Assembly: GCA_964422385.1 (NCBI GenBank)
Contig: CAYRBL010000001.1
Span: 19,999 to 83,998, forward strand
Origin: an uncultured Bacteroides sp.
Lineage (GTDB): Bacteria; Bacteroidota; Bacteroidia; Bacteroidales; JACABE01
Direction: 5' to 3'
Length of the DNA: 64,000 bases
Shown here: in pieces, positions 3,578 to 56,876 of the stretch
Layout: every line of letters starts with the position of its first letter
How positions within the stretch are numbered: position 1 is the first letter of the stretch
Notes under the pieces: generated by a model
Seen by the model: the letters and a program-made list of their open reading frames with translations, nothing else
Databases searched by the model: none
What the model was told of the DNA's origin: nothing
Made by a program: the position numbers and the translations under genes

Positions 3578-6500
3578 ATGGCATTAACAGGAATACAATT
3601 ATCAGCTGGTATCGTAGTAGGATCTAACGTAAGTGTAGATGCTAAATATGGACCATATGCTGATGTACCAACAGCAAACAGTCAAATTGGTTCAACTTTA
3701 AGATATAAAGGATTAACTGTAGGAATATTATCAGGAGGATCAGTAATAGAATATTGATATAAAGATGATATATTAGATACTAGTTTAATAGTAAAATCTC
3801 CGGATTTATCTACTAAACAAGATACTTTAGTTTCAGGTACTAATATTAAAACTATTAATGGAACTTCAGTTTTAGGTAGTGGTAATATTAGTATTACTGG
3901 TGGCGGTGCCGGCGGAGATACTAGTGCTATACATACTACTATAGCAAATGAAATTAGTACACTTACTGAGAAAACAACTCCTGTAGGAACTGATTTGATT
4001 ATTATAGAAGATTCAGCTGCAAGTGGAGTTAAGAAAAAAGTTCAATTAACTAATACTCCTATATCTTCGGCAACACAAACAGCATTAAATGCTAAAGAGC
4101 CTACAATAACAAGCGGTACAACAAGTCAATATTATCGTGGTGATAAAACTTTTCAGACTTTAGATAAAACGGCAGTAGGTTTAAGTAATGTAGATAATAC
4201 TTCTGATACAAATAAACCAGTAAGTACAGCAACACAAACAGCACTTAACGGTAAAGAAAATAATATTACTGCAACAACTAGTGCAGATTATTATAGAGGA
4301 GATAAAACTTTCCAACCATTAAATAAAGCAGCAGTTGGGTTAGGTAATGTTGATAATACATCAGATGCAACAAAAAATTCTGCAATTGCAACACTTACTA
4401 ATAAAACAATAGATTATAATAATAATACTTTACAAAATATTCCTTTGGCTGCTGGTGGATTAACTCAACCAACAATTAGTGGAAATACTTCAAGTGGAGT
4501 ATTAACTATTGAAAGTATGTTAGCTAATTTATATTCTACATCAGATCAAACTGGAGATATAAAGAAATATACAATTGCAGCAACAAATAGTTTATCTGCT
4601 TTAAGTCCTAATACATATTATTATTTATATGTTGATTATACAGGAGGTAATCCAGCATATGCAATAACTACAGATAATACAATAATTACTCATTCTAATA
4701 AAATTGCAGTAGCTCAAATTTATTGAGAAAGTGTTGGAAGTATAAATGAATTTGATATTTTTTATGTAGGTACTTATGGTTATGGATTAGCTAATAAAGT
4801 AGCACATAGATTAATACATACTGAAAGATTTGGTTATGAGTCTGGATTAGGATTAGGTGAGGATGGCAGTCGACATATAACTATTGGGAGTGGTTCTATA
4901 TGATATGATGGTGAGAATGTAATGATAAACACAACATTAAATTCAGGAAGTACACCATATCATTTTTATTATCATACTGAGGTAGGTGATTGGAATTTAA
5001 CAACTGCAAATATTTATAACAATACTCAATACGATTCTACATTAACAGGTTTACAAACTTTATCTAATGGTAAATATGCTGTAAATTGGGTATATAGAAG
5101 TTTAGCTGGAACAAGTACAGAAATGTATGTAGTATTAGGAAATGGAAATTATACTTTAGCACAAGCTCAAGCTTCTACTCCTCCAACTGTTACAGCTAAT
5201 TTATCTAAAATGTCTATCTTAGTAGGTAGAATTATAGTACAAAAAGGAGCAACAACTGCTACACAAATTGATTCTGCATTTACAAAAACATTTGCAACAT
5301 CAGGTGTATTTAATCATAATGATTTAAGTAATATACAAGGTGGTTCTGCAGGAAATGAATATCATTTAGGTTTAACTAATGAATCGTTAACTAAGACTAC
5401 GCCAACAACATCAGATAACTTATTATTAAAAGATGCAGCAGATAGTACTTGAAAAAATGCAAGTCTAGCAAATATTCCAATCTCAACACCACAACAAACA
5501 GTGTTGGATCAAAAGAAATATTTTCATGGTATATTATCAAGAAGTACAGTATTACCTTTACCAACAACAAGTTTATCTACACCTATATTTACTTTAAGTA
5601 CAGGAACGACTAATTTAATTTATTATAATCAAGGTGTTAAATATACTGTTTCTGTAGATAAAGCCACAGCATTACAAGGAAATCCTTCTACAGCACAAAC
5701 TAGTGGTAATTTAGTTATTGGTCAATATTATATTATTAATACTTACGCAGGAGGTGATTTTACTAATGTAGGTGCAGCATCTAATGCACAGTACGTTGTA
5801 TTTCAAGCAACTGGTACAACACCTGCAAGTTGAGGTGGAGGTTCAACATTATATAACATGTCGGGATTATATTGAATATATTTTTCTGATGCTAATGGTA
5901 CATTAGTTAATAGTACTATATTTCCAGGAATGGATGATACAAATGTTATAGTTTCTGCTGTATATTGGAATGGAACAACAGGTATCGTATGAGATGAAAG
6001 ACACTCTTATAACAGAGATATTCAATGACATACATGAGCACATAGTACTATTGGTACAAGATATGGTAGTGGATTAAGTTTTTCATTTGCTGGAACAACT
6101 AATACTGATACAACATTTACAATAGGTGCTGGTAATATATATGATGAGGATATAGCCTTTACTATAGGTTCTACAACAAAAGCTAGAATATGATATCAAA
6201 ATAGTGTATCAACTTATACTTTTGTAAGTTCGTTGTCTAATAGACCTTATTATACAGCTAGTGAAAGTACACCTGCTGCAGGTATATATGCTGTAAATGG
6301 AAGTACATATGCACTAACAGCACCTTTAACATCATCAACAAGATATTTTAATTATTTTGTTTATGCTACTACTTCAATTGCTAATCCTATACATATATTT
6401 GTAGAAACAGTTGCAGTTGGAAATATAGGAGGTTATACTTCAGTAACAAATGCTAGAGCAGCATCTCTTCCAAATATTAATTCTGTAGGTTTAAGTCCAG

Positions 6501-12236: not shown

Positions 12237-13667
12237 ATGGTAGTAGCAAGTTACGTAACCGTAAAGCCAGAATTGGCACACAGTAGAACTTATGAAGATT
12301 TCTACAAATTATTAGGAACACGTCCTAAAATGATGGGAGTTATGGCCCGCATGTATACACATAATACAGCGACTTTCTTAACAGAAGCCTTAATGAACAT
12401 TTATTATAATCAAAAAACAGCTAACAAATTCCAACCAATTAACTCGTTAATGATCGAGTGGGAAATTGATGTTGAGTTCGTTAAAAGAGTTGAGTTCGCA
12501 GCTGCTCCAACTGGAGACGGAACTAACGGTTCTGATATCTTAATGTATTTCAAAGAAAGATATTATGAAAAATATGATACATTCAAAGTAGACGGTTCTC
12601 GTCAACAACTGATTGTAAAAACAACTCCTGTTAGAAAAGCAGATAATTTCTGGGAATATACAGTTCAATTAATTGACTCTGATTTCTCATCAATCTTAGA
12701 CACATCGTATTGCCAAATTGGTGGTACTACAAGATTCTTATCTAACATCATGCCTGAATATCATGAAGAAGGATATACAAAATATCAATCTAATATTGAA
12801 AAACACCGTAACTGGATTACAGAACATAGAAATGACATTTCTTATTCCGCTCGTTACGCACAAGCTGAAGATCAATTTATTAAAATCGCACAAGGCGAAG
12901 GCGCTGGCGAATTAAAAGAAAAGATCTTTAAACTAAATAAAATAGAAAAAGACTTACTAGAAAACTTCCAAACTGTAAAAAATAACCACTTACTATGGGG
13001 AAAAACTACAATGGATAAAAATGGTAAATCTACAGTACAAACTGAAGATGGTCGTCCACTTATCGCAGGTGATGGTCTTATTCCACAAATCGAAAGATTC
13101 GCATCTAAATACAAATACGCTAAACTTAACGTAAATGTAATTAACACAGTGATTGACCAAATGAATCAAAAAGCTGCTAATGCAACTGGTAACAGTTATA
13201 CATTCGTAGTTAATGATAGACTATGGGGACAAATCAATACAACTTTAGGAGACTGGTTGAAACTTTGGGGATCTACTCCAACAATGATGTATTCTAAAGC
13301 TGCTCAATCAATGGTGAAAGCTGACAACCCTATCAAAGTAGGTGGAACATTTGTATCTTACGAGATTGCAGGTAACCACGTAACTTTCATGGTTGACCGT
13401 GCTCTTACAAAAGAGTATGATAGAAAAGGTTATGGTATCTGTTTAGACATGTCTCCAGACGTATCTACTAACCAACCTGCTATCGCAGCATTTACTTTAG
13501 AAGGTGCTGAATTCGTTACTTCTAAATACCCAGGTGTTGGTGGAGTAGATGGTATCACTAGTGGTATCGTATCTAGCCCAGTAGCAGGATCTAAATTGAT
13601 CGTAGCTGGTTATTCTGGTATCGCAGCATTTGCACCTTACAAATCATTCATTATTGAAGAAGTGTAA
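12237..13667 (+). CDS. major capsid protein candidate (476 aa)
   Basis: Size and position (after the scaffold-like gene, before a strong terminator) fit an MCP. The composition resembles crAss-like major capsid proteins as I remember them. All 7 Trp are TGG. TAA stop. Confidence 0.7.
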   Translation: MVVASYVTVKPELAHSRTYEDFYKLLGTRPKMMGVMARMYTHNTATFLTEALMNIYYNQKTANKFQPINSLMIEWEIDVEFVKRVEFAAAPTGDGTNGSDILMYFKERYYEKYDTFKVDGSRQQLIVKTTPVRKADNFWEYTVQLIDSDFSSILDTSYCQIGGTTRFLSNIMPEYHEEGYTKYQSNIEKHRNWITEHRNDISYSARYAQAEDQFIKIAQGEGAGELKEKIFKLNKIEKDLLENFQTVKNNHLLWGKTTMDKNGKSTVQTEDGRPLIAGDGLIPQIERFASKYKYAKLNVNVINTVIDQMNQKAANATGNSYTFVVNDRLWGQINTTLGDWLKLWGSTPTMMYSKAAQSMVKADNPIKVGGTFVSYEIAGNHVTFMVDRALTKEYDRKGYGICLDMSPDVSTNQPAIAAFTLEGAEFVTSKYPGVGGVDGITSGIVSSPVAGSKLIVAGYSGIAAFAPYKSFIIEEV

Positions 13668-16996: not shown

Positions 16997-17665
16997 ATGA
17001 TAAATAAACTAGCATCAGCAATATACAATGATATAGTTTCTGGTCTTGCCGGGATTACATCAACACCATCAATATCACTTGACCAATTAGAAGATGATAT
17101 TGTTGACGAAAGACTTCAGATAATAAAGGAATATGCTGCAAAGAATTTAGTTCCTAGAAACGATTTATTGATGTCAATAAATTGCATTCAGTTAGATTGT
17201 CTATCATTAGACAAATGTCCATGCGGAGATAAAACATATTCCAAACCACAATTGCATTTTGAATTACCACAAATCGTAAATGATATGGGTGCAGATGCAG
17301 TCGAATTTATTGGTGCAGTAGACAGAGAAGTATTCTTTAAAGTTTACACAAACACCTCATATCAATTTCACAAATATTTAAAACGTGGGGCACAACGTCC
17401 TTTCGTTTATATTGAACCCACTCCTAATACAAATAACATGTATGATGCATGGGTATTCGGAGCACCATTATTAAAAACTCTTACAGTAATTGCAATCTTT
17501 AAAGATCCAAGACAATTAATGCAATATGATTGCTGCGCAGGAGATGATATCGAAAATTATTCTTTTATCTCTGCTGAAATTAAAAAACGCCTTACTGAAA
17601 AGAAAATAAGATATTACCGTAGTTTAGCGGTACAACCAACGCCAAATAATCAAGCCCCAAAATAA
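16997..17665 (+). CDS. head/neck-module hypothetical protein (222 aa)
   Basis: Track ORF, no TGA. TAA overlaps the ATG of the next gene. Confidence 0.65.
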   Translation: MINKLASAIYNDIVSGLAGITSTPSISLDQLEDDIVDERLQIIKEYAAKNLVPRNDLLMSINCIQLDCLSLDKCPCGDKTYSKPQLHFELPQIVNDMGADAVEFIGAVDREVFFKVYTNTSYQFHKYLKRGAQRPFVYIEPTPNTNNMYDAWVFGAPLLKTLTVIAIFKDPRQLMQYDCCAGDDIENYSFISAEIKKRLTEKKIRYYRSLAVQPTPNNQAPK

Positions 17666-18384
17666 TGTATAGTGGGATAATATATAAATATACTTCGCCA
17701 TCAGGCAAAATATATATAGGACAGACATGTAATGAATATAGAAGAAGAAAACAATTCCTTAATATTAAGGGTACATATAGCTCTCCTAAAATAGACAACG
17801 CTAGGAAAAAATATAAACCTGAAAATTTTTTATATGAAGTTTTATATCAACACAAATCAAATAATAAAAAAGAACTGATTGATATATTAAATGAAAAAGA
17901 AATATTCTATATTAATGAATATGACTCAATAAAAATTGGATATAATTGTCAGCCTGGAGGATTATGTCTTATAAAGACAGAGGATTCCATAAAAAAGGCT
18001 ACAAAGAAAATATCTAAAATTGTACTACAGTATTCTTTAAATGGTGATTTTATAAAAGAATGGTCATCAACAATGGAAATAGAAAGAGTTTTAAATATTG
18101 ACCATACGCAAATTAGTGGTAATTGTTTAGGTAAAACCGATTATTGTCACGGATATATTTTTAAGTATAAAACTAATAAAATTATATTTAAGATTAATAA
18201 AGTAATTCCACAAAAAAGTAAAAAGAAATGCGGTATATGTCAAATAGACTTAAATGGAAATGAATTAAACAGATGGGATACTGTTACAAAAGCAGCAAAA
18301 GAACTACATATATGTAGAAATCATTTAAAAGAAATTGCGCTAGGTAGAACAGAATATAAAGGACATATTTATAAATTAATTTAA
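17665..18384 (+). CDS. GIY-YIG homing endonuclease, free-standing (239 aa)
   Basis: N-terminal GIIYKYTSPSGKIYIGQT ... R ... H ... YNCQPGG (GIY-YIG core). Two C-terminal NUMOD/IENR-like HTH repeats (EWSSTMEIERVLNIDHTQISGNCLGKT; RWDTVTKAAKELHICRNHLKEIALGRT). Confidence 0.8.
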   Translation: MYSGIIYKYTSPSGKIYIGQTCNEYRRRKQFLNIKGTYSSPKIDNARKKYKPENFLYEVLYQHKSNNKKELIDILNEKEIFYINEYDSIKIGYNCQPGGLCLIKTEDSIKKATKKISKIVLQYSLNGDFIKEWSSTMEIERVLNIDHTQISGNCLGKTDYCHGYIFKYKTNKIIFKINKVIPQKSKKKCGICQIDLNGNELNRWDTVTKAAKELHICRNHLKEIALGRTEYKGHIYKLI

Positions 18385-18390
18385 TAAACA

Positions 18391-19095
18391 ATGAGAGATT
18401 ATTCTTTTAATACAGCGTACACACAAGCAAGAGAATTATATGGATTAGAATTAGATCCAGATGTATTTGAATCAATAGGATTGATTGCTTGGGACAGAAT
18501 TGGAAATAAAGACTATAGACTATATAAATACAGTACTCAACCTATTGAAGATGCTTTAGGTTATTGGTACATAGATCTTCCTTGTAATTGTGATATTATT
18601 GAAGCAGTTACAACTAACTACGAAGATTATCAAAAAACTACACCTACTACATTAGCGGGTAATAATCAGAATGGGTGGATTGAAGGATATGTTGAATCAA
18701 GAAAATACAATACCGGTAATTTATATTCATCTGGTAAATATATTAAATATAGAGAAGAGGGAAATCGTATTATTATGAATGACCACTTTGAAGTAATTAA
18801 TATTTTCTATAAAGGCGTTGTTGTAGATGATACAGGACTACCTATGCTTAACGATAAAGAAATGGATGCAATAGCAGCTTTCTGTATTTTTGCAGATACA
18901 AGAAAGAAAGCTATCACAACTAAAGACCAAACAAGTTGGCAAATGGTTCCTTATTTAGAACAACAATGACTAATGAAATGTACTCAAGCTAGAGTACCTG
19001 ATTATATTAATCAAAATGAAATGGATGAAATCCTAAACGTAATCGCATCATGGGATAGAAAACGTTATGGTAAATCATTTAAACCAATAAGATAG
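18391..19095 (+). CDS. neck/tail-module hypothetical protein (234 aa with TGA=Trp)
   Basis: Track ORF 18391-18969 continues in frame through TGA 18967-18969 to TAG 19093-19095 (LEQQ-W-LMKCTQARVPDYINQNEMDEILNVIASWDRKRYGKSFKPIR). Confidence 0.7.
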
Positions 19096-20126
19096 TGAGA
19101 ATATTATTTAATCATGGATTAACCCCTGGAGAGATTTACACAAATACTCCTAAATCAATTATTGATAAAAAATGAAGATGAATGATCAGTCGCTATGGTA
19201 GCACTGATTCTTATGAAGATGCTATTGCTGATCCATTTAAATATTGCTTTGGTTTAATACTCCACAAAATAATTGAGGATAAAGTACGATTTAGAGTTCC
19301 AGCGAAGACTGAAGCATATATTGATTTTGAGATAGTCTCAGGCGAAAAATTCATTTCGCAGCGACAAAATGGAAGGTTCTCAGAGATTGATTTTATAGAG
19401 TCAGACTTCACTGGATACTTTCTAATGTATTATTTTAAGGCTAAGGCATACCAGAAGGCAATGCCAATTTATATTGGCGGAGAATTAAAAAGAAAATTTC
19501 TTGACAAAATTAACTCTGGTGTAAAGTTCTATACAACCAAAGATGTTACAATTGAAGATTTTATTGACCCAGTCCATGAAAGATTTCCTGATTTTACAAG
19601 AGCTGAAATCAAGAGACTACTACTTTATGGATTCAGAAGAATGCACTCAGCAATTAAGTTTGGCTGTGCAATCTCTATTAATACAAGAAAATATATTAAT
19701 TGTTTAGCTTATATAGGTAAATTAACACTAACTCCAGAAAAAAATATTAAAGAGTATAGTATAAGACGAGATAGGAAATTAAGAAAAATCGAAGGATGGA
19801 AGAAAGCTGAATTCGATGGATATTATTATATAGGTCTAAATCCTACAGGATTTGACCGCTGACTTGAAGATAATAAAACAAGTAAATCAATTGCTAAGTT
19901 CAATAATGTAATTCCTCGAAAAATACAAGAAGAAATATATTATAAAGCAAAGCATCTTCATGTGTTTAGATTTAAAAGAAAAACTTTTAAAGGGTGGGCA
20001 TATTGAGCTGATGAATTAAAGATCCGCGATTTAGAATATTTGGGAGAAGCTTATGAGCATAAATTTCATCCATCTTATAAAACATGAATAGAATTAAAAA
20101 AAGAATATGAGAAAAGAAGCAGTTAA
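19095..20126 (+). CDS. hypothetical protein (up to 343 aa with TGA=Trp); start uncertain
   Basis: Phase-0 frame opens after TAA 19080. Candidate starts are GTG 19095 (overlapping TAG as TAGTG) or ATG 19182. Five in-frame TGA (19173, 19179, 19860, approx 20005, approx 20086). TAA 20124-20126 lies 20 nt inside the next gene. Confidence 0.6.
20106..20123 (+). repeat. direct repeat, left copy (TATGAGAAAAGAAGCAGT)
   Basis: Exact 18/18 identity with 20943-20960. Confidence 0.9.
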
Positions 20127-20940
20127 TGAATATGTAGGATATGTATATAAAGTTATTAATAAAATTAATGGTAAAATTTATATTGGTGAAACTTTAAATA
20201 CATTAGAAAAACGATTTTATCAACATTGTAATGATGCTTATAATAAAACTTATTGGAATTATTACTTTTATAGAGCTGTCAGAAAATATGGAAAAGAAAA
20301 TTTTGAAATATTTGAAATACAAAAAGTTATAGATAGTGATAGAAAAATCTTGAAAAGTAAATTATTAGAATTAGAAGAAGTATATATTAAAGAATATGAT
20401 TCGTTTAATTTTGGGTATAATAGTAATAGTGGAGGTAGACATCCTCTGTATGTTAGTGCGGAAACACGAATATTACAAAGTAAAAGAAAGCTTGAAGATC
20501 CTCGAACTAAAGATAATTTAAAATACGCTAGAAGTTTTCATCATAATGAAAAAGAAGTAGTTGCTTATAATTACGAAACTGGAGAACAAATTAAAAAATT
20601 TAATTCTATTAAAGAAGCTTCTGAGTATTATAATATTGATAGAAGCGGTATTGTAAAAGTATGTAAGAAAATTACTAATTATTTAGGTAACATTGATGAT
20701 ATCAAACTTACTTGAAGATACCCTGATGATATATATGAGATAAACTATACAATTAAAGTATATGATGAATTGGGAAATCTTTTGAATAGATTTATCAGTT
20801 TTGCCGATGCTGCTAGATTTTACAATATTAAACACCAAGAAACAATTGCTAGATGTTGTCAGGGCAAAACTAAATGTACTGGTAGAAAGAAAGGTGAAAA
20901 ATTAATATGGAGATTTATAAATGATGATTTTAAATTATAA
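20107..20940 (+). CDS. GIY-YIG homing endonuclease, free-standing (277 aa with TGA=Trp)
   Basis: YVGYVYKVINKINGKIYIGET...R...H...YNSNSGG core. HTH repeats FNSIKEASEYYNIDRSGIVKVCKK and FISFADAARFYNIKHQETIARCCQGK, the second lying beyond in-frame TGA 20713-20715. TAA 20938-20940. Confidence 0.8.
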
Positions 20941-20942
20941 AT

Positions 20943-20960
20943 TATGAGAAAAGAAGCAGT
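20943..20960 (+). repeat. direct repeat, right copy (TATGAGAAAAGAAGCAGT)
   Basis: Exact 18/18 identity with 20106-20123. Confidence 0.9.
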
Positions 20961-22092
20961 GAACACTTTCTCTGGCGGGCTTAACTACGATCTTAACCCA
21001 ATCACAACTCCAAATAGCGTGCTTACTGAATGTATAAACGGGACTTTTATTACATTCAATGGAGATGAACTAGCACTGCAAAATGATGCTGGTAATACAA
21101 AAATACTAGTTCCGGGAACAGAACTTGATCCAAAATATGTGGAATTATCAGAAGGATTTTATCCCATTGGAGTAAAAGAATATGGTGGTGTATTATATAT
21201 TGTTTCTGGAAAACAAGGAACTAATCCAGATGGGAGTGATGACCTAATAGAATTTGGAAGTTATCCAAGTCCTGAAATATTAGATGAAGAAAACCAGGGT
21301 TCTGGTAATTCATATTCTTTTTCAAATCCTTCAACTACAACAATGTATACACCAAACGTAATAAGTTCGTATGATTTTAAGCCCGGAAATTCTATAGTTT
21401 TTAGTAAACCAATTTTATCCCCAGACAATACGGATACATCAAATATAACATATTATAGAAAAGGTACTTATACTGATTATCAGAAAAAGATATATGTTGT
21501 GAAGTTATATTTACAATTATCGAATGGATATATTGACTTAACTGATGATGTTTGGAAAAGATATGCTGATTATTATACAATTAATGTAGGAGATTTAAAT
21601 CAATCCTCTGGAATGAATTTTTGATTTAATGATTCTAATTTTAAATATTATTGTAATACAAACTATAAAGGAAAACTACTAATCTCAGTAGAGTTAGAAG
21701 ATTTAAATACTTTTGAGTTAAGTAGTTATACGGTAGGATTTAATCCTGCTGGAGATAGTTTTAGATTTATATTTAAGATAAAATTTATAAATGGAACTAC
21801 TTGAACAATTAATAAAATTAAAACAATTTATACTATAGGAAGTGATACTCCAATAAATACTGAACAAACTATAAATGGAGAAATAATAAATATTACTTAC
21901 GATATTCCTTTAAATATGGCAGGTGAGCCTTTTACATTTAACTTTATTCCAAAGTTTGTATATTCTTCTGATGATGTTACTAATTTATTACCAGCGAATT
22001 ATTTAGTTAAGTATACTATTTCTGGAATTCAAGAGTTACGGAATAGTTCAGAGTATTCTTATTCTGACTATATAATGCAAGATTATAATTAA
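20944..22092 (+). CDS. tail-module structural protein (382 aa with TGA=Trp)
   Basis: Track ORF 20944-21624 continues in phase through TGA 21622 and one more TGA to TAA 22090-22092. Confidence 0.65.
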
Positions 22093-38584: not shown

Positions 38585-38601
38585 ACACATTATAATATAA
38601 T

Positions 38602-41600
38602 ATGGAAATAAACAAACCAAATGATATTTTAGTAGCAACATTAAACAGTCCTAATGCAACCGCTTATGATTTAATGTCGAATAATATACTTGGAAATAAT
38701 ACTTCTTTCTATTCGAAAGACGAATACAAGAAGTCAAAGTATGTACAAGACGCATTTAAAAAAGAAGATGGTAAATTTGATGATGTAGCTTTTGAAGGTG
38801 CTTATAAAGTGGCACAAGACAAATATACTCAATTGACAAATGATCAATATTTGAAAGGGTTGGACAAAATGGTGTACAGCCCTTTCGATATTACCCGTCC
38901 AAAGGATGCAAAGACATTTAATGTAGGTACTATATATAGCAGAGACATCAATCCGTTTAAAGAATTAAAAGGTTGAACTGGGGTTAATAGTGTAAATGAA
39001 AGTCCACTTACACTGAGAGAGTTAGCACAACAGAGCAAAGTTTTCGATCCAGAAACAAATACTTGGTCAGACAAGTCTTTAAACGATTTAAGTATCATAG
39101 ATAAAGTTTTTGGACAAACTCTTGTGTATGCCCAATGGGATACTGATGGGACTCATATAGATTTAGCTTCTGGGCAAACAGTAAAGCATAAAAAAGGAGA
39201 TTGGAAAATAAATGAAGAAGGTAATTTATATACTGAGAAATTAGGTAAGAGAGAAATTTATGGAAAACAAGTTGTAAATCCAACTGATATTCTTACTACT
39301 GATGGCTCTTTATTTAATAAGTTCGACTTCTTTGATTCTGATGATAGACAAAAATCTATTGCAGGCACAACCTTTAAATTAGCTTCACAAATAGCTCCTT
39401 ATTTAATTCCTGGATTTAATACTTATTATGGTGGAGTAACTGCTGCTATAGGTTTAGCGTCCGTATTACCAACTTTTTATAAAGCATTTGAAGGGATGTT
39501 AATTGGAGACAATAAAACATCTTTAACTGATGCTGCAACTTCCGCTGAAAGTTATTTAGCAAAATATAATCAGATGTCTATATCTGATGAATCACAAGGA
39601 TCTATGTTCAATTATGAGCAAATAGGCCAAATGGTTACACAAGTGTTCTCACAAATCTATCAACAAAGAGCCGCTGCTAGTTTATCTAACATTTTTTATA
39701 ATCCAAAAAATGCAGTAATTGATAAAAAGATTGCCGAATTAACAGAAGGAGTTAATAATGAATTTATTAAAAATTCCTTTAAAACAGCTGGTAAATTAAG
39801 TGATGAAAGTCTTACTAGTATTCATGCCAATATTATGGAGAAAATTCCTGGCTTAAAGGAATTATACGAAGACCAATCTAAAATGGCTAAAGCTTTAAAC
39901 TTAGGTTATATGGCATTGGTAACAACTAATGATATTTATGGCGAAGCTCTACAATCAGGATACGATAGAAGAACTGCAGGTTTTGCTGCTCTTGGTGCTG
40001 CTGCAGGACAATATGGTATTATGATGAATAACAGAATGGGTGACTGGTTCTTAGACAAAACTACTGGATATACTTTAGAATCAAATAGAGCCATGACTAA
40101 ATTGGCTGTTAAAGATTACTTAGATCCTATTAAAGAAGCATTCTCTAAAAAATCATCTACGGAAACTAAACAAGCATTAGGTGGTATCTTTGGTAAAATG
40201 AAAGAATCGTTTGTTGATATTTTTACAAGTCCAACAGTCTTAGGAGAAAACTTATTTAAACATTCTATTATTGAGGGTGTTGAAGAGGTAACTGAACAAG
40301 CAGTTTTGGATACAACTAAAGGCATGATTGATGTTATGGGTTATTTAGGTCTTACAAAAGGTAAAGGATCTTTTGGTGGATTTAGTAATGTGTTTAGTCA
40401 AAGTGGTTTAGAAAATTATATCTCTAACTTAGTTGGTGGTATGATTGGCGGTCCAATGTTTGAATTAAATACAACCAAATTAGAACCATTTATTAATCAT
40501 AGAATTCTTGGGAAAGAAGCTGTTACCCCAGAAGTAAGAAAATCAATGTACCAATTAATTGCTAATGGTCAAGGCCAAGATGTAATTGATGAATTAAATA
40601 AACAACGCAAATATCTCGGTAATGAATTTATAACTGTTCCAGACTCTAACGATGATACTGCAGATGCTGAAACAAGTAAATCTCGTTCACAAGCTGATGT
40701 GATTACTGATAATGCAATACAAATGGTAAGAAATATTGAAAGTATTTTACATACAGAAAATCTTGCCTATACAAATGAAGAAATTATTAAAAAAGCTTTT
40801 GTTGACCAATTGTTAATTGACAGTTTAAATAAAGCTAAAGGAGATTCTAAGGTAGGGATTGAAGGATTAGTATTAAGTGACTATACTGAAAACTTGGATA
40901 AACTAATGTTACTTCAATCTGAAATTCAATCATTATCAAAAGATGATGAATCTGCAGCAGCAAACAAAGCTGAGATTACACGATTAAAAGATGAAGCTAA
41001 AATCTATAAGGATAAATTACAAAATATTTTAGATGGTAAAGAAGCTGAGAATTACTTTAGTCAAGCCATGTTTTATTTATCTAAACCAATTAGCGAAAAG
41101 TACTTAGCTATTGATAGGGAAACTTATGCTAAAACAAAATATAATAAAAGTTATTACGACTTACCAGAAGATGGTGTTGGACTAACTAAAAAACGTCTTA
41201 ACGAAGAGTGGACAAAATACCAAGAAAACAAAGATATTAGAAAAGATCTTGAGGTTGCAACTAAGGTATATTTAGAAACTGAAAAATTATCAAACCCATA
41301 TATTGCAAAATATATAGAGTCTGGTTATAGTGAAGAAAGACGTAAGACAATTAAAAACCTTTTAAATTTATCTGGGACATTAAGTATATTTGATACGCAA
41401 GGGACAAATAAAAATATTGCAGTAAATAACTTTATTGCCGTAGCTAAAGAACTTGAACAACGTACAGGTAAAAAAATTATTCCTTGGGATGTAGTTAAAA
41501 CACAGTTCTATGACCACTTATTAAGCAATGGGTATATTATTGATGGTAGTACTGGTAAACCTATAGAAGACTCTTATCTTGAACAAGAAGTGGATGTTAA

Positions 41601-44600
41601 TGGACAAAAAATATCAAGAAAAGATTTACTTGGTGATTTTATTAACCAGACATTACAATTACTTCCTGCTGATAATATTGATATTAACTTATTATCAAGA
41701 CTTGTTTCACAACGTGTTGAAGAAGTAAATAAAGGGATAAATACTAATATTGAAGAACTTACTAAGCAAAAAGAGGATTTATTAGCAACTATGACTCCTG
41801 ATAACTCTGCTGATTTACAAGCTGAAATTAGTAAAATTGATGATAAGATTAATGAAGCTAAAGCTAAAACTTTAGACATTAGAGTTATTGGAAGTTATGC
41901 TGAAACTCAAGGACAACAAGCTAAATTAAAAATTGCGGCTGATGATTATATTACTAAAGTTGAAAATGAGAAATTAGAAGCTCAAAAAGAATTTTCTGAT
42001 AACTTATTAATAAACGGACAGACGTATGACCCTACCAGAATTCGTTCTGATATTCAAGAATTAATTGATAAGAAAGATGTTGGAACAACTGGTAAACCTA
42101 AAGCTCGTAAAGACACTGATAAACTTAAAGACATCGCTGAATATATTAGACAAACTCCTATTTATAATTATGAGTTACTTGAAAATATAATTAAAGGTGC
42201 TGGTACAGCTAAGAATAAAATTCAACAAATTACTAAGTTATTAGACGAAAGTAAAAAAGATTGGATCAAATTCTTATCTCTTAAAAATAAATATGAAGCA
42301 GCTAAGAATACTATTCTTGGAGAGAAATCTTCTGTTGAAGGAACAAATCACTTATGGGATGCAGTAATTCAAGAAGTTAAAAATGGTAACTTAGATGGTG
42401 AACTATTAGATTTCTTTAAAACTGCCTATAATGAAGGTATGGTTGAATTACAAAAGAATGATCCAAATCAAATCTTTTCAAGAGATGAACTTGCAGAAAT
42501 GCTGACATTGGATAAGAAAAGTCAAAGGGCATTTGAAGAATTTATGACTATGTTTGACCAACACATCAACCCAACATTATTACCTGATGGAAGTATAGAC
42601 CCTGCTTATGAAGTAACTAGGGATGAAGTTTTAAAACAAGTACAAGCTATTGGTAATGAAATCTTAAGAGATAAAGTTGGAGATATTCTTAAAAATGTAA
42701 CAGATCTTGAAGTTGCTGAAAAACCGTTGATGGCATTGGAGAGAGCGGTTGATAAGATTTCTAGATTTGTAAAAGCTAATCCACAATTAGTTACTCAAAT
42801 GTTAAAATCAAAAGAGCTACTTGATGATTCTGAAAAACATATTTCTAACTCAATATACGATTTATTAAAAGAATTTGATGTATATTTGTCGGATAATTTA
42901 AAACTCAGACAAAAGAAACTATTTGACATTTTAAAAGCCGAAGAATTCTCTTTAACTAAAGTTGCAGACATAACTAATTATTTATCTGATGGAGTTAACG
43001 TTGGAGATTTAAAACAAGCTATGGACACAATTAGTATGATTCAAGCTGCGGTTTATGCTATGAGTACAACTCAAGTTGGCTATGAAGATCCTCATGGATT
43101 TATTGCTACAAGACAACAGTTTGCTCAATCTAACAAAATCGCATCAGATGTACTTAATTTAAAGACTATTTCGTCTGATGAGGCCACATTAATGTTACAA
43201 GACTTAGAAAGAATTAGTAATAAACTAGGCTTCTTAAGAAATGTACTATTAAGTAATGCTGGACAGTTATTCACTGAACAAGAAAATATTAGAACAAAAA
43301 CAAATAAACTATTCGTAAACGCCTGGCAAGACCTTATGAATAGAAATATAACAGCAGCAGGAAATCCTATTATTAAGGATATTGCTGACGCTATTAAAAA
43401 TGAAAATATTACTGATGAGGAAAAACTCTTAGCAATAGAAAAACAATTCTATGATTTAAACAAATCATTATCACAGGAAGATAAGAAATCCTTATTAAGA
43501 GATTTAAAAGCTGCTTATCCATCTACTAATGAGGCTACAAGTATTTATCAATCTGACGGATCTGATGAAATTACTAAAAACATTACAGAGTTGAGCAACA
43601 ATGACTTCTTGTTATATCTAGCTGCTAATTTAACAGTAAATCCAAAAGACTTTAGTATTAGAATGCATGATATTTTGAAAACTCCAGAGTTTGATAAATC
43701 TCCGTTCTTTACCCAAGAATTAGGAATTAGAATTGCTTATGCATCTATTGTTAATTCAGATTTATTTTCAGTAATTGCAGAAACAAATGATCCTCTTACT
43801 ATTAAAACCCAGCATATTACTTACCTTTTAGGAGATGGTGGCACTGGTAAAACAACAGTAGGATTTAAAGTTTTAACTCTGTTATTACAAAATAATAATC
43901 CTAACTTAAAGATTTGGTTTGCCGCACCACACCAAGACCAAGCAGTAAAACTTCATGATGAAGTTCTTTCTAATGTGGATGATTCCAAATTTAATAAACA
44001 AGTTTACAACAAGAAAGCTTTATTTGATGCTTTAGGTTTAGGAGAAATGTATGAAAAGATTACTAACTTAGACAATAAAGCAATCTTTTTTGATAAAGAC
44101 CAAGGTGGTAGATTAGTTGTTGATAAAGAACAATTTAAAGATATTCCACTAATTGAGAACTTACCTGATGTTGTATTCATTGATGAGGTAACTCACTTTG
44201 GTGCACATGAAGTATTCTTATTAAATGAATTAGTTGCTAAAGCTAAAGACGCTGGTAAGACAATTAAAATTTTAGGAGCAGGTGATACATCACAAAAAGG
44301 ATTTGAGATTGAAGGTATATCTTCAAATGTAGACCAAGTCTCAGGTATCTTTACGCCACGTCTATCTTTAACAGTAAGAGCACTTAATAGTCAAAAAAGA
44401 AAAAATAATGAATCTATTGCCGAGATAACTAAACGAACAAGACAAGTTTGGTCATCAGGTAAAGATGATAAAAAAGTATTAGATTTAATTGGTTCTGGTT
44501 TACGTTTAGCCTATAATCATGATGCTAATACATTAAATGGAGATTTCTTAACTTCAGATGCTGCAATTCCAGAGACAATCTTTGAAACATTAGCAAATAG

Positions 44601-47463
44601 AATTAAAGAAGATCCAAATACAAAAATTGCTATATTAAGCACAACCTCTGAATTGCCAGCAGCTTGGACTGCAGATTTCACTAAGTATGGAATTACTGAA
44701 GCCAATTATAAAGTGTATACACCTAATAATATACAGGGTGCTGAAGGGGATTACTTTATGTTTAATCTATCTGCAATCAATGAAAATTCAACAATAGCTT
44801 CTAAATTACGCTCATTATATACTTATGTAACAAGAGCAAAATATGGAACTGTTATTGTTAATGATGCTCCAAATGTTTTACCTTTCTCTTTATTAAGAGA
44901 GCGGGAAGAATATACTCAATGGATTACTCCACTAAGACCTGAAGTTGTAATGGAGAATAAAGCTCATAGAGTAGAAGTCTTAAAAGGTTTAATAGGTGAT
45001 TCAAAAATTGAAGATGATTACTTCAAATTTGAAACTCCAGGAGTAGTTGAGGATCCAGAGAATATTATACAAGATAACTTATTAACAGGTGATGCAGAAC
45101 CAGAGCCAGATATTAAGAATGCTAAAATCATAACTCAATTAGAAAATGGTAACAAACCTGATAATGGTAAATTTATGATTCATTCTTTCTATAATGACTT
45201 AAATGCACAAGTTGTTAAAAAAGGTAATGTATATGATATAGTTAAAAATCCAGGAAGTTTCTATGGTCTTGAAGCCTCAGGACTTTCAGAAAGTGAAAGA
45301 GATGCTTTAATTGATGAACATATAGCTCTAAAATACCATATCCTAAATAACAAAGGTCATTTAGAGGAATTTGCTGTTAACAATGAAACTGTAGCTAAAA
45401 ATGCGAAAGGTGAATTTGTAGTTAGAAAAAGTTCATTCAATGAAGATTATAACCAACCATATTTAAAATTATATGGTGATACAAGCAAAACTTTAAAGAA
45501 CGGTCAAGTATTTACTAATCTATTCTATAAAGTAAAAGCTAAATCTGGCAATGATGTATATGTACATTTAGCAACTTTCCCTACATTAGATACAGTAGAA
45601 AAAAGTATTGTAGGTGGAAAAACATCAAAAATGTATAAAGATTTCCAAAACTTTACATCTGGAACTAAAGAAGAATTTGTAATTGATAAAAATAAGTTTC
45701 AAGTACATACTTCAACTAGATTAGTTCCTTGGGAAAAAGCAGGAGCTGCAAGAAAGCAATTTACTTTGGAAGAGCTTTCTACATTACCAGGTATAAGATT
45801 TCTAGATATCACAAATGGTTCATTTAGTAAAGAACCTGTTTATCATTTATTTCCAAATGATGCAACTAATAAAGAAGCATTTAAAGAATATTATCGCAGA
45901 ACAACATTTGGCGAGCCTATTACTGAAGAAGATTTAGAGAAATTATTTGATAAATATAAAGGTAAGGTATTCGTTGCTTTATCGTTTATGGAGCAGGGCT
46001 TTAATAAAGGTACTAATAAAAATAGCCAAGTTCAATTAGTTGCACTGAAAAGTGGAACTCGGACATTAGATGAAGTTAGACAAATTATTACAGGTGGGAC
46101 TAAAGAACAGCCTAAGAGTATTCGTACAATGATTCTTGACAAAGGAAACATTGACGAAAAGAACTGGGCAGAAGCGAAGAAAAACTCCTTGTTTAATGCT
46201 AACCAAGTTTTAGATATGTTAATTGAGCTAGCAGTTAAAAATCCTGAGCTTTACAACTCATTAATAGTTGAGAATGAAAAGAAACTAAATACTTTAAGCG
46301 CAGATAAGACATTATCGTCTGATACTCAATTTAAAGAATTCTTACAAGAATATGATACTGTTGTCAAATCAGCAGTTAGTAAAATTGCAGGAAATAGTAT
46401 TATTGATAGAATTGCTTATGGTAATGAAGCTTTAAAATCTGTTTATAGATTAATAGGTAATAAAGTTGCAGAAGCCCAAAAAACTAAAAAACCACTAGAT
46501 AAAGCGCAATTAAGACAAGCTTTGATTAGTGATATTAAAGGTAATAGAGAAGGTAAATGATTCCATAATTTCTGGAATATATTTGAGTTACATACACAAT
46601 TAACCAGACTTTCAGAAAATCCAAAAACATTAGCTCCTATTAAAGAATTTGCAGATAATACTTTAGACACATTAAATGCTATCTTTAAATTATGAGATAC
46701 TGCTTTACAAAGTTCAGGTGGAGTTTATTATAACTTACCTATTCGTGGGCAAAAAGGTGTTAAAGGAGTATTCACAATTGACCAAGCTGCCAACGAAGAT
46801 AATCTTAAAAATTTATATATTGATATGGCTCCAGAGGGTCCTTATTTCTTATTTGAAACAGACTTCTCAGAACCAGCATCAGTAAGCTCTAAACCAGCAC
46901 CCACACCTCCAGCACCTAGCCCAGCGCCAGCGACAACGCCCGCTGCACCTACTGCTCCAGTTGTAACACAGACTGCAGGCGATCTTAAAGCAATGAATGC
47001 TGCACATCCAAATTATTCTCCTATTATGGATATTTCTACTTCAAATTTAAATAAACAAAAAGTAATAGCAGAAACATTAAGTGCCATTCAAAACCATTTA
47101 AATGACGCCACATCAGATGACGATTTCACATTAGTTACTAATTTAAAAAATGCATTTGAAAAGACTAAAACTCTTATTGATGAAAAAACAAACAAAGATG
47201 CTCACATGGTCTTAAATAAATTAATTGATCTGTTTAGTGCAGAACCAGCTGATTTAAGCCAAGAACATGTAGCTTTATTTAGAGAATTAACTCCAAATAA
47301 TGTGTATCAAATGTTGTTTAAAGATTCATTACAAGCCGGAGCTTTTGATTTGAATAATGCAAAAGATTTATTAGATAGCTATATTATGGATAACTTTATA
47401 ACAAATCCGAGTCTTTTAGGTACTCTTATGGGATTACCTGAAACATTCACAACTAAGTGCTAA
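38602..47463 (+). CDS. giant protein 1 (2953 aa with TGA=Trp) with hydrophobic N-terminal region, coiled coils and an embedded SF1 helicase-like ATPase core
   Basis: Merges 38602-38976, 39124-46560 and 46825-47463 (phase 1) through TGA 38974, 46558 and 46693, verified codon by codon. SF1 motifs in order: GDGGTGKTT (43831-43857), VVFIDEVTHF, GAGDTSQKG, IQGAEGDYFMF, YTYVTRAKYGTVIV (to approx 44862). Confidence 0.75.
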
Positions 47464-47468
47464 CACAT

Positions 47469-50400
47469 ATGATAACATGTACGATTGACATGCAAGGAAA
47501 GCTTTTAGATTTTCTAAAAAAGCTTAACTACAAAAAACCAGAAGATATTGTTGCTTTCTCAAAGTCTTTCTTAAAGATTGGCGAGATTGATTCAATAGAA
47601 ACTTTAATCAACACATTCACCACTAAAAAAGGTGAGTTAAAAAATTATTTATCAAATGCTGGCATAGTATTAGAAGCAGAAAAAGCAGGAGTCCCGAAAG
47701 AGACTCTTGCTGTTTCTAACATACATTCTAATTTTACTACGCCGGCTATTTCTACGTTATTTAATACCCTTCACGTTGCAGAGCAATATTTTGAACAGTC
47801 TTCAAATAATTTGATTATGTCAGCTGTGTATTTAGGAAATCCCGAAAGCGAGAGATACCCTTCCTCAAGTACAGAATTAAATAATAATATTAATACTTTA
47901 AAAAATAATTTATTTAAAACTATTGTTGATTATCTTATTGATAAAAATAAACTTAAAAGATCAGATTACTACGATACTAAGAAATGAGGAGAAGATACAA
48001 CAGAAGTATTCTCACAGAACTTATTTACAAGTAAAGGATTTAATAGACAAGTTTATGAAAGCCAATATAGAAAAGTAATAGATTTATTAGAAAAAGAGTT
48101 ATTAGGAAGAAGCGATGAAAATGCTATTATCCTACAAGCCACAGGACAAAAGATTCCTAACTTAAAAGGTAATATCTTAAATCCAACTGAAAGAAAGAAA
48201 TTTGATGCTTATAATGCAGCAATTATGTTGCTTAACTTTGACTCAATTATTTCAAGATCTTTTGGCGGAGTATTAGGAGTACATCAAGCAACATTTAATA
48301 GTTTTGAAAGCCCAGTTGATGGAGCTAAATACTTTAAAAAAGTTAAAGGTCTTGTTACAGAATTTTGGGCAAATGATAAATTAATGTCTGATGGCACTAA
48401 CCAAATTGAGGATAAGTTGACACATAAGCTTATCTCAATGATTCCTTATTATAATAAAAAAGGAATTTCTACTGGGCAGTTTTTGGAAATGCGTGATATA
48501 TATGGACTTGGATCATTATTACATACGTTTCAAACTCGAAATATTATTGCATTAAGTAAGATTCCAGGATGGGTAAGTTTAGAAGAAGACCCAGTTAAAT
48601 CCTTACAATGGTTTCTTAATAGTATTTCTGGAGCACATAAGGAAGACTTTAAAGGCCAATTGGCTAAAGAAGACAATCTTCCATCAATAAAATATGCCCC
48701 TTTTAAATATAAAATTGGGGTAATTAATTCACTAAGTAATTTTTTAAACACTATAGCTACTAAAGAAGCTAATTCTCCTGTATTCTCTATGGCGAGAATT
48801 ATTACTCAAGGTTTAGTAAATTCTATGGGTGCTACATATGCTACATATAATGCTGGCAAACAATCTATGAGTATGAAAGAAATGCATACTCATAATTCTG
48901 AACGTGTTCAGTTGCAAGAAGGTATTTATGCTCATATGAAAAATAACACAACAAATATTCAGAAGTTTAATTTAACTGATGAGCAAATTACTGAAAAGGT
49001 TCAAGAACCTAACGGTAATGGTACAAGAAAATTAATTCACACTTTATTAGGTATTAGTATTACTAATGAAGCTGCTCGTGAACTTGAACAAGATTGGACT
49101 AAGGATGCAAAAACGGATGAACAAAGAATTAAAAGTTTAACAACTGTTTTCAAATCAATTGTAGACCAAATGTTTCCAGCAAATCGTGGGAAAGAAAAAG
49201 CTTATGAAAGTAGTTTATTTAAGAAAGTTGTTGATAATGAAGCTAATGTAGATGCTTTGAATTTTGATGAAGTTACATCAAACAATGAAATCATTTCAGA
49301 TTTATCAAGTCTTTCAGCTGTACAGGATATTTTAGATGTTAAGTTAGATACGATGATTGTAAGAATCCTTACAACTATTTCTAAACAAGGTGGTGAGAAA
49401 ATTCCAACTTCTTTAATTCCAAGTTTAGGTCAAAATGACGTAGCCATCTTAACGGATAGAATGAAAATTGAGAATGATCCAAATTATACTGGAGAATATA
49501 AAAACTATTTCTTAAATGAAAAACATTTAGCAGGAACAGAATTTGGTAATCATTTATTAGGCACATCAATTAAACTTGAAGTATTAAATGGACAAGACCA
49601 AAAAGATGCGGCTAAATTAAATGTTATTGAAAACTTTGCAAGTCACTTTGAGTATGATTTCTTAGAATCATTTAAAACTGATACTGAAAGTGCTAATTTC
49701 ATGATTGGTAACTACTCTGATAAAGGCCGTATTATTGATAAGAGAATTAATAAATATGCTAAGTACAATGGAGACTTTATTATGGGTAAGAAATCTTCAG
49801 ATAAAGGTAAAATCCTTAATGCTGGAGAAGTTTGGAATTTAGCATATGAACAATCAGGTAAATACTATAATGATTTAACTACTAAAATAATTAATGATTA
49901 TAAAGTGGTTGCAGAGGGAGAACCTACGCTTAAAGCTTTAATGGGTAAAGGAACAAAAGTAGAAGTTCTTAATGGTATCGACCAATGGTTAGGTTCTATG
50001 GAATATAACCAATTCTTAAATACTATTAATAAGTATCAAGGAGCTCACTTTACTGAAGAGTTACATTATGCTAAGTACAATGTAAAAGTGGATGGAAAAA
50101 ATGTAATTAGACCATCTATTAATCAAACTTTAATGGATTATTACCAAATTCACAATAATCCTGATTTACATAAAGCATTTGTTGAAAATCAAAAAGAATC
50201 TTTTATTCATAAATATTTAGCACAGAATGGTAATCAAAATATCTTATTAACTTCTGATAAAGTAGATAACTTTAATAAAGTTAAAAAAGAAATAAATCCA
50301 AGTATATTTAAAAATGTAGTTGAATCTTTAGGATATAATTATAAGGGATATGCTGAAGATTTTGTTGACAAAGAAGGAAATCATTTACTTTATTCAGTTA

Positions 50401-56400: not shown

Positions 56401-56876
56401 AAATCATTCCTTATCAAGATTTATTATATATGTACAATTTAATTGTAAATAATGAAGCTTATGGGGATAATAGATTAACAGCCTTGCTACAAGACTATAT
56501 GAAAGATCCTACTTCAATTGCCTATAAATATTTGAACTATTCACGGGAAGTTGACTTAAGACATAAAGATATATTTGAAATAAATGTAGACCCAACTATT
56601 AAAAATGGTAATGAAAAAGTAACAGTATTAGACAAACTGCAAGACAGTCAAAAGAATGATATTGTATTCTTAGCATTACAGAATAAAGGGTTCTTAAATA
56701 TGAAACGTCTTAATGACCATAAAGTAAGAGGAATTAGCTTAGAGAATTCCGATTTCATTATTAATACATTTATGGATGTTACTGAAAATAAAGATATCAA
56801 AAAATACGAACAGTTCATGTCTCTACTATCATTAGTGAGAGACTCTAACTTACTAATACACTTTAAATGCGATTAA
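47469..56876 (+). CDS. giant protein 2 (approx 3135 aa with TGA=Trp): putative virion RNA polymerase with beta-prime-like DPBB catalytic motif
   Basis: Merges 47457-47987, 48225-51188, 51312-52742, 52896-53468 and 53511-56876 (phase 0) through TGA 47985, 51186, 52740 and 53466. VVARIPAQSMQSF...GSDFDIDKAYIMGH (DFDID at 53778-53792) resembles RNAP beta-prime NRaPtLHrlsiqaF...NADFDGDqMavH. Start taken as the first ATG (47469) after the upstream TAA; the track start at 47457 is GTG. Confidence 0.7.

Follow-up and report, generated by a model that had tools for sequence, protein, structure and literature searches.

A GIY-YIG Homing Endonuclease Gene of a crAss-Like Phage Lies Between Two Copies of a Tail-Module Gene Overlap

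Introduction

In fungal mitochondria, the endonuclease open reading frames (ORFs) known as mORFs carry a copy of the C-terminus of their host gene, the native one being left duplicated downstream, and such gene hybrids are described for atp6 of Allomyces macrogynus and for atp6, atp9, cox2 and nad3 of Glomus (PMC3630166); free-standing GIY genes have also been duplicated together with the N-terminus of atp9 (PMC7487136). Here we describe a comparable arrangement in a crAss-like phage, encountered in a 64,000-nucleotide (nt) stretch of contig CAYRBL010000001.1 (positions 19,999 to 83,998 of the forward strand; assembly GCA_964422385.1, filed under an uncultured Bacteroides sp.), which is called the window below. 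The element in question is a homing endonuclease gene (HEG) of the GIY-YIG type, named HEG1, which lies between two genes of the tail module, named 'up' and 'down', and is flanked by two copies of a short motif that encodes the start of 'down'.

By analogy, the mORF gene hybrids appear to be the closest precedent for this arrangement. As in these elements, HEG1 is flanked by two diverging copies of a host segment that its insertion would destroy, and it is fused in frame with host coding sequence. In the mORFs, however, the foreign C-terminus replaces the native one, which decays unexpressed, whereas at the phage locus both copies would be functional, one as the tail of 'up' and the other as the head of 'down'. 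Moreover, the duplicated unit of HEG1 is merely 21-22 nt long, it is the overlap of two different genes, and the host is a phage.

Among phage elements, HEG1 resembles the seg genes of T4 (e.g., SegB) and I-TevI-type enzymes in its domain architecture, its conserved catalytic residues and its NUMOD and helix-turn-helix (HTH) modules. Like the free-standing GIY-YIG genes of phages in general, it sits between genes at a fixed site, is patchy among relatives and is packed in a late operon; unlike them, it has no start of its own, is fused to seven codons of its neighbor and lies inside a duplicated dual-coding overlap. Another point of comparison is mobE, which interrupts nrdA of phage Aeh1 ('genes in pieces') and splits that gene with nothing known to be duplicated. 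Both mobE and HEG1 are free-standing endonuclease genes in essential coding sequence with functional products on either side, the difference being that nrdA has gone from one gene to two polypeptides, while 'up' and 'down' are two sequence-sharing genes that have been parted by duplicating the shared part. We found no phage example of such an endonuclease-flanking overlap duplication in the literature, and a comparable duplication of a start region was seen in none of 68 other phage GIY-YIG loci obtained from an IMG/VR scan with a HEG1 alignment, a background sample that holds distant GIY-YIG genes only.

Results

The junction of 'up', HEG1 and 'down' is composed of the following features, the gene readings of which all require that TGA is read as a sense codon (code-4 translation).

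19095..20126, plus strand: 'up', the upstream tail-module gene; 343 amino acids (aa), GTG start, TAA stop at 20124-20126
20106..20127, plus strand: left copy of the junction motif, TATGAGAAAAGAAGCAGTTAAT
20107..20940, plus strand: HEG1, a GIY-YIG/NUMOD1 homing endonuclease gene; 277 aa, one in-frame TGA at 20713
20943..20964, plus strand: right copy of the junction motif, TATGAGAAAAGAAGCAGTGAAC
20944..22092, plus strand: 'down', the downstream tail-module gene; 382 aa

A first-pass annotation of the window had drawn attention to an exact 18-nt repeat on either side of the endonuclease gene, and this repeat was readily recovered. The 18-mer TATGAGAAAAGAAGCAGT occurs at 20106-20123 and at 20943-20960, with no third occurrence in the 64-kb window even when 3 mismatches are allowed; in shuffled controls the mean was 0.17 matches, and two matches were reached in 1 of 100 shuffles. 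It is the longest exact run among the direct repeats of the window that are spaced by no more than 2 kb (repeat family D12). The in-register similarity reaches 22 nt and can be written TATGAGAAAAGAAGCAGT[T/G]AA[T/C], where both mismatches are synonymous in the MRKEAVN frame. The left copy is dual-coding: in one frame it encodes the C-terminus EYEKRSS* of 'up', whose last seven codons and TAA fall inside the copy (an overlap of 20 nt), and in a second frame it provides the ATG and the seven-codon leader MRKEAVN of HEG1. The right copy supplies the start codon and first seven codons of 'down', which begins 3 nt past the HEG1 stop (TAA ATT ATG). Counting from the ATG, the right copy departs from the left by T to G at position 18 and T to C at position 21, and these synonymous changes remove what had been the stop codon of 'up'.

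Relatives of the phage were gathered by scans with the 'up' and 'down' proteins and with an 'up' alignment. This yielded 17 distinct junctions that lack a HEG, and in 17 of 17 the motif is present as a single copy with no gene between 'up' and 'down', which are separate, overlapping genes in all of these relatives. In most of the empty junctions the two genes overlap by 20 nt, with the consensus ATG A.A AA. GA. ... GTT AAT ACT TTT, such that the TAA of 'up' lies inside codons 6-7 of 'down' (GT-TAA-T) and the ATG of 'down' is 17 nt upstream of this TAA. The closest HEG-less relative, L020, has an 'up' protein 90% identical to that of the window; its junction reads AAAGAATATGAAAAAAGAAGCAGTTAATACTTTT (also written GAATATGAAAAAAGAAGCAGTTAATACTTTTGCG; in longer context AAAGAATATGAAAAAAGAAGCAGTTAATACTTTTGCG), its 'up' protein ends in EYEKRSS* as in the window, and its 'down' gene begins MKKEAVNTFAGGLNYDLNPITTPNSVLTE. 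The left copy of the window differs from this single-copy junction by 1 base and the right copy by 3. From these empty junctions it follows that the repeat is the boundary of the insertion, as the first-pass annotation had proposed, with the ancestral GT-TAA-T stop kept in the left copy. That annotation had also reconstructed the ancestral 'up' gene as running on to ...EYEKRSSEHFLWRA (...EHFLWRA); this tail has to be given up, for in L020 and the 16 other empty junctions 'up' stops at the very TAA that is retained in the left copy.

The overlap of the host genes in the empty state, which had not been recognized in the annotation, explains the existence of the duplication: both genes need the shared 20 nt, so a viable insertion between them requires that the overlap be present twice. 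In this arrangement the left copy supplies the last codons and stop of 'up' together with the ancestral ATG and seven codons fused in frame to the endonuclease, and the right copy restores the beginning of 'down', its start and seven codons. As to origin, we propose a break near position 21/22 of the junction, the right side of which would have been repaired by homology with the downstream gene of a donor, and the left side linked to the endonuclease by an illegitimate in-frame joining. On this view, as with the fungal mORF elements, the left copy would be the native one and the right copy would have arrived with the element. Taken as a whole, this structural account, with the proposed origin and with the translational coupling and the changes at positions 18-21 described below, is the best explanation of the locus, and we consider it probable.

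Two further endonuclease genes at neighboring junctions and one unrelated insert at the up/down junction allowed the same reasoning to be followed.

17665-18384: HEG2, a second GIY-YIG/NUMOD1 gene between the tail ring protein genes ring2 and ring1; 239 aa, its ATG overlapping the ring2 stop (TAATG)
L006:4234-4985: a third GIY-YIG endonuclease gene, between ring protein 1 and 'up'; 30% identical to HEG1
L022:3176-3375: a non-HEG insert of about 190 nt at the up/down junction, also present in L023 and L045; the empty counterpart is L025:3513

The host junctions of HEG2 and of the L006 gene are non-overlapping or overlap by 1 nt, and there the inserted genes have no long flanking repeat and recreate only the stop-start joint, TAATG or TAGTG; in L006 the TAG stop of the endonuclease gene overlaps the GTG start of 'up', which restores the TAGTG joint of the empty genomes. 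These short joints fit the rule that an overlap in the empty state drives the duplication. Most relatives lack HEG2; L005 and L006 carry orthologs of 58% identity. Together, HEG1, HEG2 and the L006 gene indicate that several tail-module junctions in this clade are endonuclease homes. At the up/down junction itself, the L022 insert is flanked by a 15-nt direct repeat, AAGAATATGAAAAAG, and contains an ORF of 72 aa without a family match that starts on the left ATG and ends in the duplicated 'up' tail EEYEKGIRN*. Relative to the empty L025, all 82 aligned nt of its left flank are the same (100% identity) and its downstream gene is a different allele. The duplication length at this one junction thus varies with the insert, from 15 nt (L022) to 21-22 nt (HEG1).

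To judge from alignment, the leader of HEG1 corresponds to codons 1-7 of 'down', which have stayed in their original setting, 17 nt before the stop of 'up'. The residues K-E-A-V-N-E form an insertion found only in junction-resident orthologs, distant HEG1 paralogs begin MK-Y.GYVYK, and the conserved Gly is preceded by 10 residues in HEG1 against 3 in I-TevI. In an AlphaFold2 model of the ortholog P0002 (77% identical to HEG1 and at the same junction; mean predicted local distance difference test score 82), residues 1-5 are of low confidence or disordered, the first strand starts from residue 9, and a helical linker and two small strand-helix modules follow, so that the leader lies outside the modeled fold. 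Between the start at 20107 and the GIY motif, HEG1 contains no in-frame ATG, GTG or TTG. The earlier suggestion that the endonuclease had captured the initiation region of its neighbor therefore holds: HEG1 has no start of its own and uses the original ATG of 'down' along with its stop/start overlap context. One may speculate that the out-of-frame ATG within TAATG at the left joint is the ancestral start of the endonuclease, shifted by a 1-nt deletion, an idea that is compatible with the paralogs that start MK-Y.GYVYK.

In orthologs of HEG1 the spacer between the HEG stop and the 'down' start ranges from -8 to +3 nt. Given this close stop/start geometry, translation is likely to be coupled from 'up' to HEG to 'down', which would tie endonuclease synthesis to the expression of late structural genes. 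Metatranscriptome contigs from the freshwater source sample run unbroken from 20701 to 21463, that is, from the 3' end of HEG1 through the right copy into 'down'. RNA folding of the left, right and empty initiation regions gave no structure above shuffled sequences and no sign of hairpin control of translation. Promoter-like sites occur at the same rate as in shuffles, and none of four terminator-like matches is at the repeat junctions.

HEG1 consists of the leader (residues 1-7), a GIY-YIG domain (residues ~11-105), a helical linker and two NUMOD1/HTH-like DNA-binding modules. It matches the Pfam families PF01541 (42 bits; cutoff 22.6) and PF07453, i.e., NUMOD1 (43 bits; cutoff 22.8), the latter in two stretches, with weak HTH-type matches as well, and it matches homing endonuclease families of PHROG. 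Residues 5-91 of I-TevI, in its catalytic domain, are matched by residues 13-106 of HEG1; G11, Y14, Y25, R36, E90 and N105 are invariant in 15 homologs, and H40 is nearly so. Among six orthologs of 277 aa, the ratio of nonsynonymous to synonymous divergence (dN/dS) is 0.09-0.21 and the synonymous divergence (dS) is 0.8-2.3, near saturation. Based on these values, HEG1 appears to be functional and under purifying selection, and its copies to have separated long ago. An intron-encoded endonuclease of group I type was considered and rejected, as intron-like RNA is lacking (Rfam gave no intron match at the locus at E <= 1, save one unrelated weak match upstream) and the ORF has a different gene on each side. 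In architecture and placement, as in its distribution, HEG1 would be an ordinary free-standing GIY-YIG homing endonuclease gene.

We also examined how the arrangement is distributed. A protein search returned HEG1 orthologs of 55-79% identity, almost all of which start MKKE[AS]VNEY, and in every ortholog with readable context the gene is at the same junction, with 'up' overlapping its start and a 'down' gene with a related leader after it. Ten further HEG lineages resident at the junction were sampled, and all of them have the leader fusion. On a tree of 'up', lineages with the HEG (11) and distinct junctions without it (17) are mixed in nearly every clade. Since the fusion is common to diverged orthologs, dS is near saturation and the HEG genomes are scattered among HEG-less relatives, the arrangement is in all likelihood old and inherited and not a target-site duplication that could be dated. 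The resident endonuclease also turns over: L060 (1046-1882) and L028 (3507-4451; likewise L039-L044 and L046) have 'up' tails that are 96% identical and HEGs that are 42% identical, of 277 aa in L060 and 314 aa in L028, with the L028 leader equal to the L060 leader minus 6 nt, which points to replacement or domain swapping of the endonuclease. A distribution this patchy and subject to turnover would be expected if the endonuclease gene is mobile but tied to one home site. The junction can be described as a probable hotspot: no fewer than two divergent lineages of endonuclease have resided there, as has a small insert unrelated to them, and it is also where 'down' is exchanged.

The occupied and empty states were then compared position by position, with nine right copies in register on one side and 15 empty junctions on the other. 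Occupancy was associated with positions 18-21 (p <= 0.0007 each), counted from the ATG, and with no others. Empty junctions have T-AAT at these positions, 18-20 being the 'up' stop, while the right copy reads A-TCA in six genomes and A-AAT in two others, the window having G-AAC. GTTAAT was retained in 0 of 11 right copies; the variant ATA-TCA (ACA-TCA in L016) was found in six of the nine in-register HEG genomes and in none of the 15 empty ones. It is at positions 18-21, too, that the left copy passes into the body of the endonuclease. The changes may reflect loss of the stop-codon constraint in the right copy, or they may protect the HEG-containing allele from its own enzyme, if that enzyme recognizes or cuts the overlap; both may hold.

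Finally, the flanks were compared. The left flank of the window is closest to that of L020 (86-91% nt identity), a preference for L020 that the right flank does not show. Identity drops sharply between the final 300 nt of 'up' and the initial 130 nt of 'down' for window/L020 and also for L005/L006 and L001/L002. The junction thus seems to be a general recombination boundary for the variable 'down' gene, whether or not a HEG is present.

Discussion

Several observations weigh against the account given above or limit it. The drop in flank identity is seen in HEG-less pairs too (L005/L006, from 99 to 79%), so co-conversion driven by the HEG is not specifically supported and cannot be claimed. Some HEG-less genomes already carry GTAAAT or ATAAAT, and immunity cannot be separated computationally from lost constraint. 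One-sided homologous repair combined with illegitimate joining is one of several routes to the same product. In the source sample one contig spans the HEG-containing form and no HEG-less contig or deletion joint was found among the assembled contigs, which cannot show absence. Lastly, the left and right copies within a genome are more alike (12.9 of 18 positions) than left and right copies from different genomes (11.5 of 18; permutation p = 0.0024), the window being the extreme case. This likeness is not predicted by a single ancient duplication followed by drift, and homogenization of the copies or their refreshing from empty junctions is needed.

The last point leads to an addition to our explanation, one that would supplement it and not replace it, namely that the copies are kept alike by gene conversion, or that one of them is replaced by the recipient junction at each homing event; in that case the repeat copies in the window would be so alike owing to a recent exchange, or to a recent arrival of the HEG in this lineage. 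Besides the excess of within-genome identity, it accords with lineage-specific variants that occur in both copies, such as MSKG/MSKG in L017 and AGA/AGA at codon 2 in the window, where L020 has AAA. The effect is small, however, the lineages are not independent, no left-right similarity is seen in L058 and L016, and similar coding constraints (K-E-Y-E-K in the 'up' tail, M-K-K-E at the 'down' start) inflate the similarity. We regard such exchange as a tentative possibility, somewhat short of an even chance.

In an extension of the account we prefer, the overlap itself may be the target of the endonuclease. If it were, the enzyme would recognize a sequence that is hard to mutate because it is read in two frames, the changes at positions 18-21 would confer self-immunity, homing would drag along the 'down' allele of the donor and so drive the exchange of a probable host-range module, and synthesis of the enzyme would be slaved to late translation. 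A selfish gene would in that case be driving the exchange of this module among crAss-like phages. We consider this extended reading rather doubtful.

It is also conceivable that the endonuclease has been domesticated, inherited vertically over a long period and retained for a benefit to the phage, e.g., excluding or degrading co-infecting relatives or promoting exchange of 'down', and that it is no longer a selfish homing element. The strong purifying selection on HEG1, the rough agreement of HEG identity with 'up' identity and the recombination boundary at the junction could all be read in this way, and nuclease genes mark exchange boundaries in other phages (PMC10448857). Nevertheless, sister genomes differ in whether they have the gene, and in a background of 96% identity the resident HEG has given way to one of 42% identity, which speaks for mobility and turnover, and the boundary is there without a HEG too. 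Domestication is for these reasons improbable.

A recent event confined to this genome fares worse. Under this explanation, an insertion by micro-homology or with target-site duplication would have left an 18-nt footprint and truncated an 'up' gene that formerly ended ...EYEKRSSEHFLWRA*. Homing itself does not create duplications, which would favor some other event, and the left-right identity in the window (19 of 21) is the highest of the HEG-containing genomes examined (8-18 of 21 in the others). Against this, 'up' ends at the retained TAA in all 17 empty junctions, a family of orthologs with saturated synonymous divergence has the leader fusion as well, and the closeness of both copies to the L020 junction (1 base apart for the left copy, 3 for the right) means that a high identity needs no recent duplication. 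The locus has a short direct repeat around an inserted gene in common with transposon target-site duplications; unlike in those, the two repeats have diverged from each other and are passed on together with the element. A transposon origin was rejected: no inverted repeats pair the cassette ends, no transposase or integrase is present (the GIY-YIG gene is alone between the repeats), the copies have diverged and the duplication length varies. Staggered cutting as the source of the duplication was likewise rejected, as the overhangs left by GIY-YIG enzymes are of 2 nt (PMC2330249; PMC2761285). We consider a recent insertion highly improbable, and with it falls the idea of a fresh, 'precisely datable' footprint, as the copies have diverged in most other HEG-containing genomes. 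Overall, the interpretation in the first-pass annotation stands for the insertion boundary and the captured start; it does not stand for the longer ancestral 'up', for a recent date or for the way in which it implies that the duplication arose. Finally, a chance match or a generic translation-initiation motif of the phage, which might be entertained in an AT-rich genome (31% GC) where A-rich initiation regions are common, is refuted by the count of just two matches in 64 kb at up to 3 mismatches and by the homology of the motif to the single junction of all relatives examined.

In our preferred account, the locus illustrates a simple rule: where a mobile gene enters between sequence-sharing genes, the shared part must be duplicated, and the neighbor's translation start can be inherited. 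The parallel with the mORFs suggests that the same solution arose independently in phage and mitochondria, two kinds of compact genome. For annotators, it follows that short direct repeats around phage endonuclease genes should be checked against an overlap in the empty state before transposition is invoked. The empty junction, together with its natural variants at four bases, also offers a candidate target for an uncharacterized family of endonucleases in crAss-like phages.

Additional Features of the Window

The window belongs to a crAss-like phage, as indicated by its ring proteins and Crassvirus major capsid protein.

12237-13667: Crassvirus major capsid protein
16997-17665: tail ring protein 2 (ring2; weak match, under the Pfam cutoff)
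18391-19095: tail ring protein 1 (ring1; Pfam match)

The local gene order is ring2, HEG2, ring1, 'up', HEG1, 'down'. Under the standard code the ORFs are interrupted at TGA, and when TGA is taken as a sense codon the plus strand becomes tightly packed; examples are the TGA codons at 18967, 19173, 19179, 19860, 20004, 20085, 20713, 21622 and 21802. A conserved Trp of ring protein 1 is encoded by TGG in the window and L001 and by TGA in L003, L008 and L010, and TGA is most likely read as Trp in the window. The GTG start of 'up' overlaps the stop of ring protein 1, and the gene has five in-frame TGA sense codons; its orthologs (44-90% identity) are at the same position in all relatives. In 'down', the N-terminal ~50-90 aa are conserved and the remainder is variable. 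No Pfam or PHROG match gave a function to 'up', 'down' or the small ORF of L022, and a blastn search of the locus against an annotated phage collection gave no match.

Within the 5' part of 'up', at 19123-19211, a low-depth DNA contig from the source sample (depth 2 vs. 35) swaps 87 nt for 87 others and is a minor population variant of that segment. In L010, a 76-nt remnant between ring2 and ring1 (4205-4280), reading MIGIIYNTNASGKWY..., looks like the deletion scar of a decayed HEG2. Among the distant phage loci, the unrelated contig L065 is an outlier in which the same upstream element (1471-1486 and 2834-2849; ...ATACCGAGCTAAC...GTAGTGTAGAGAGTAG) precedes each of two tandem GIY-YIG paralogs; it may be a repeated regulatory cassette, a phenomenon distinct from the HEG1 duplication. 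Further downstream in the window, two giant plus-strand ORFs at 38596-47463 and 47457-56876 encode 2955 and 3139 aa under TGA recoding and are followed by ORFs of 1205 and 1179 aa.

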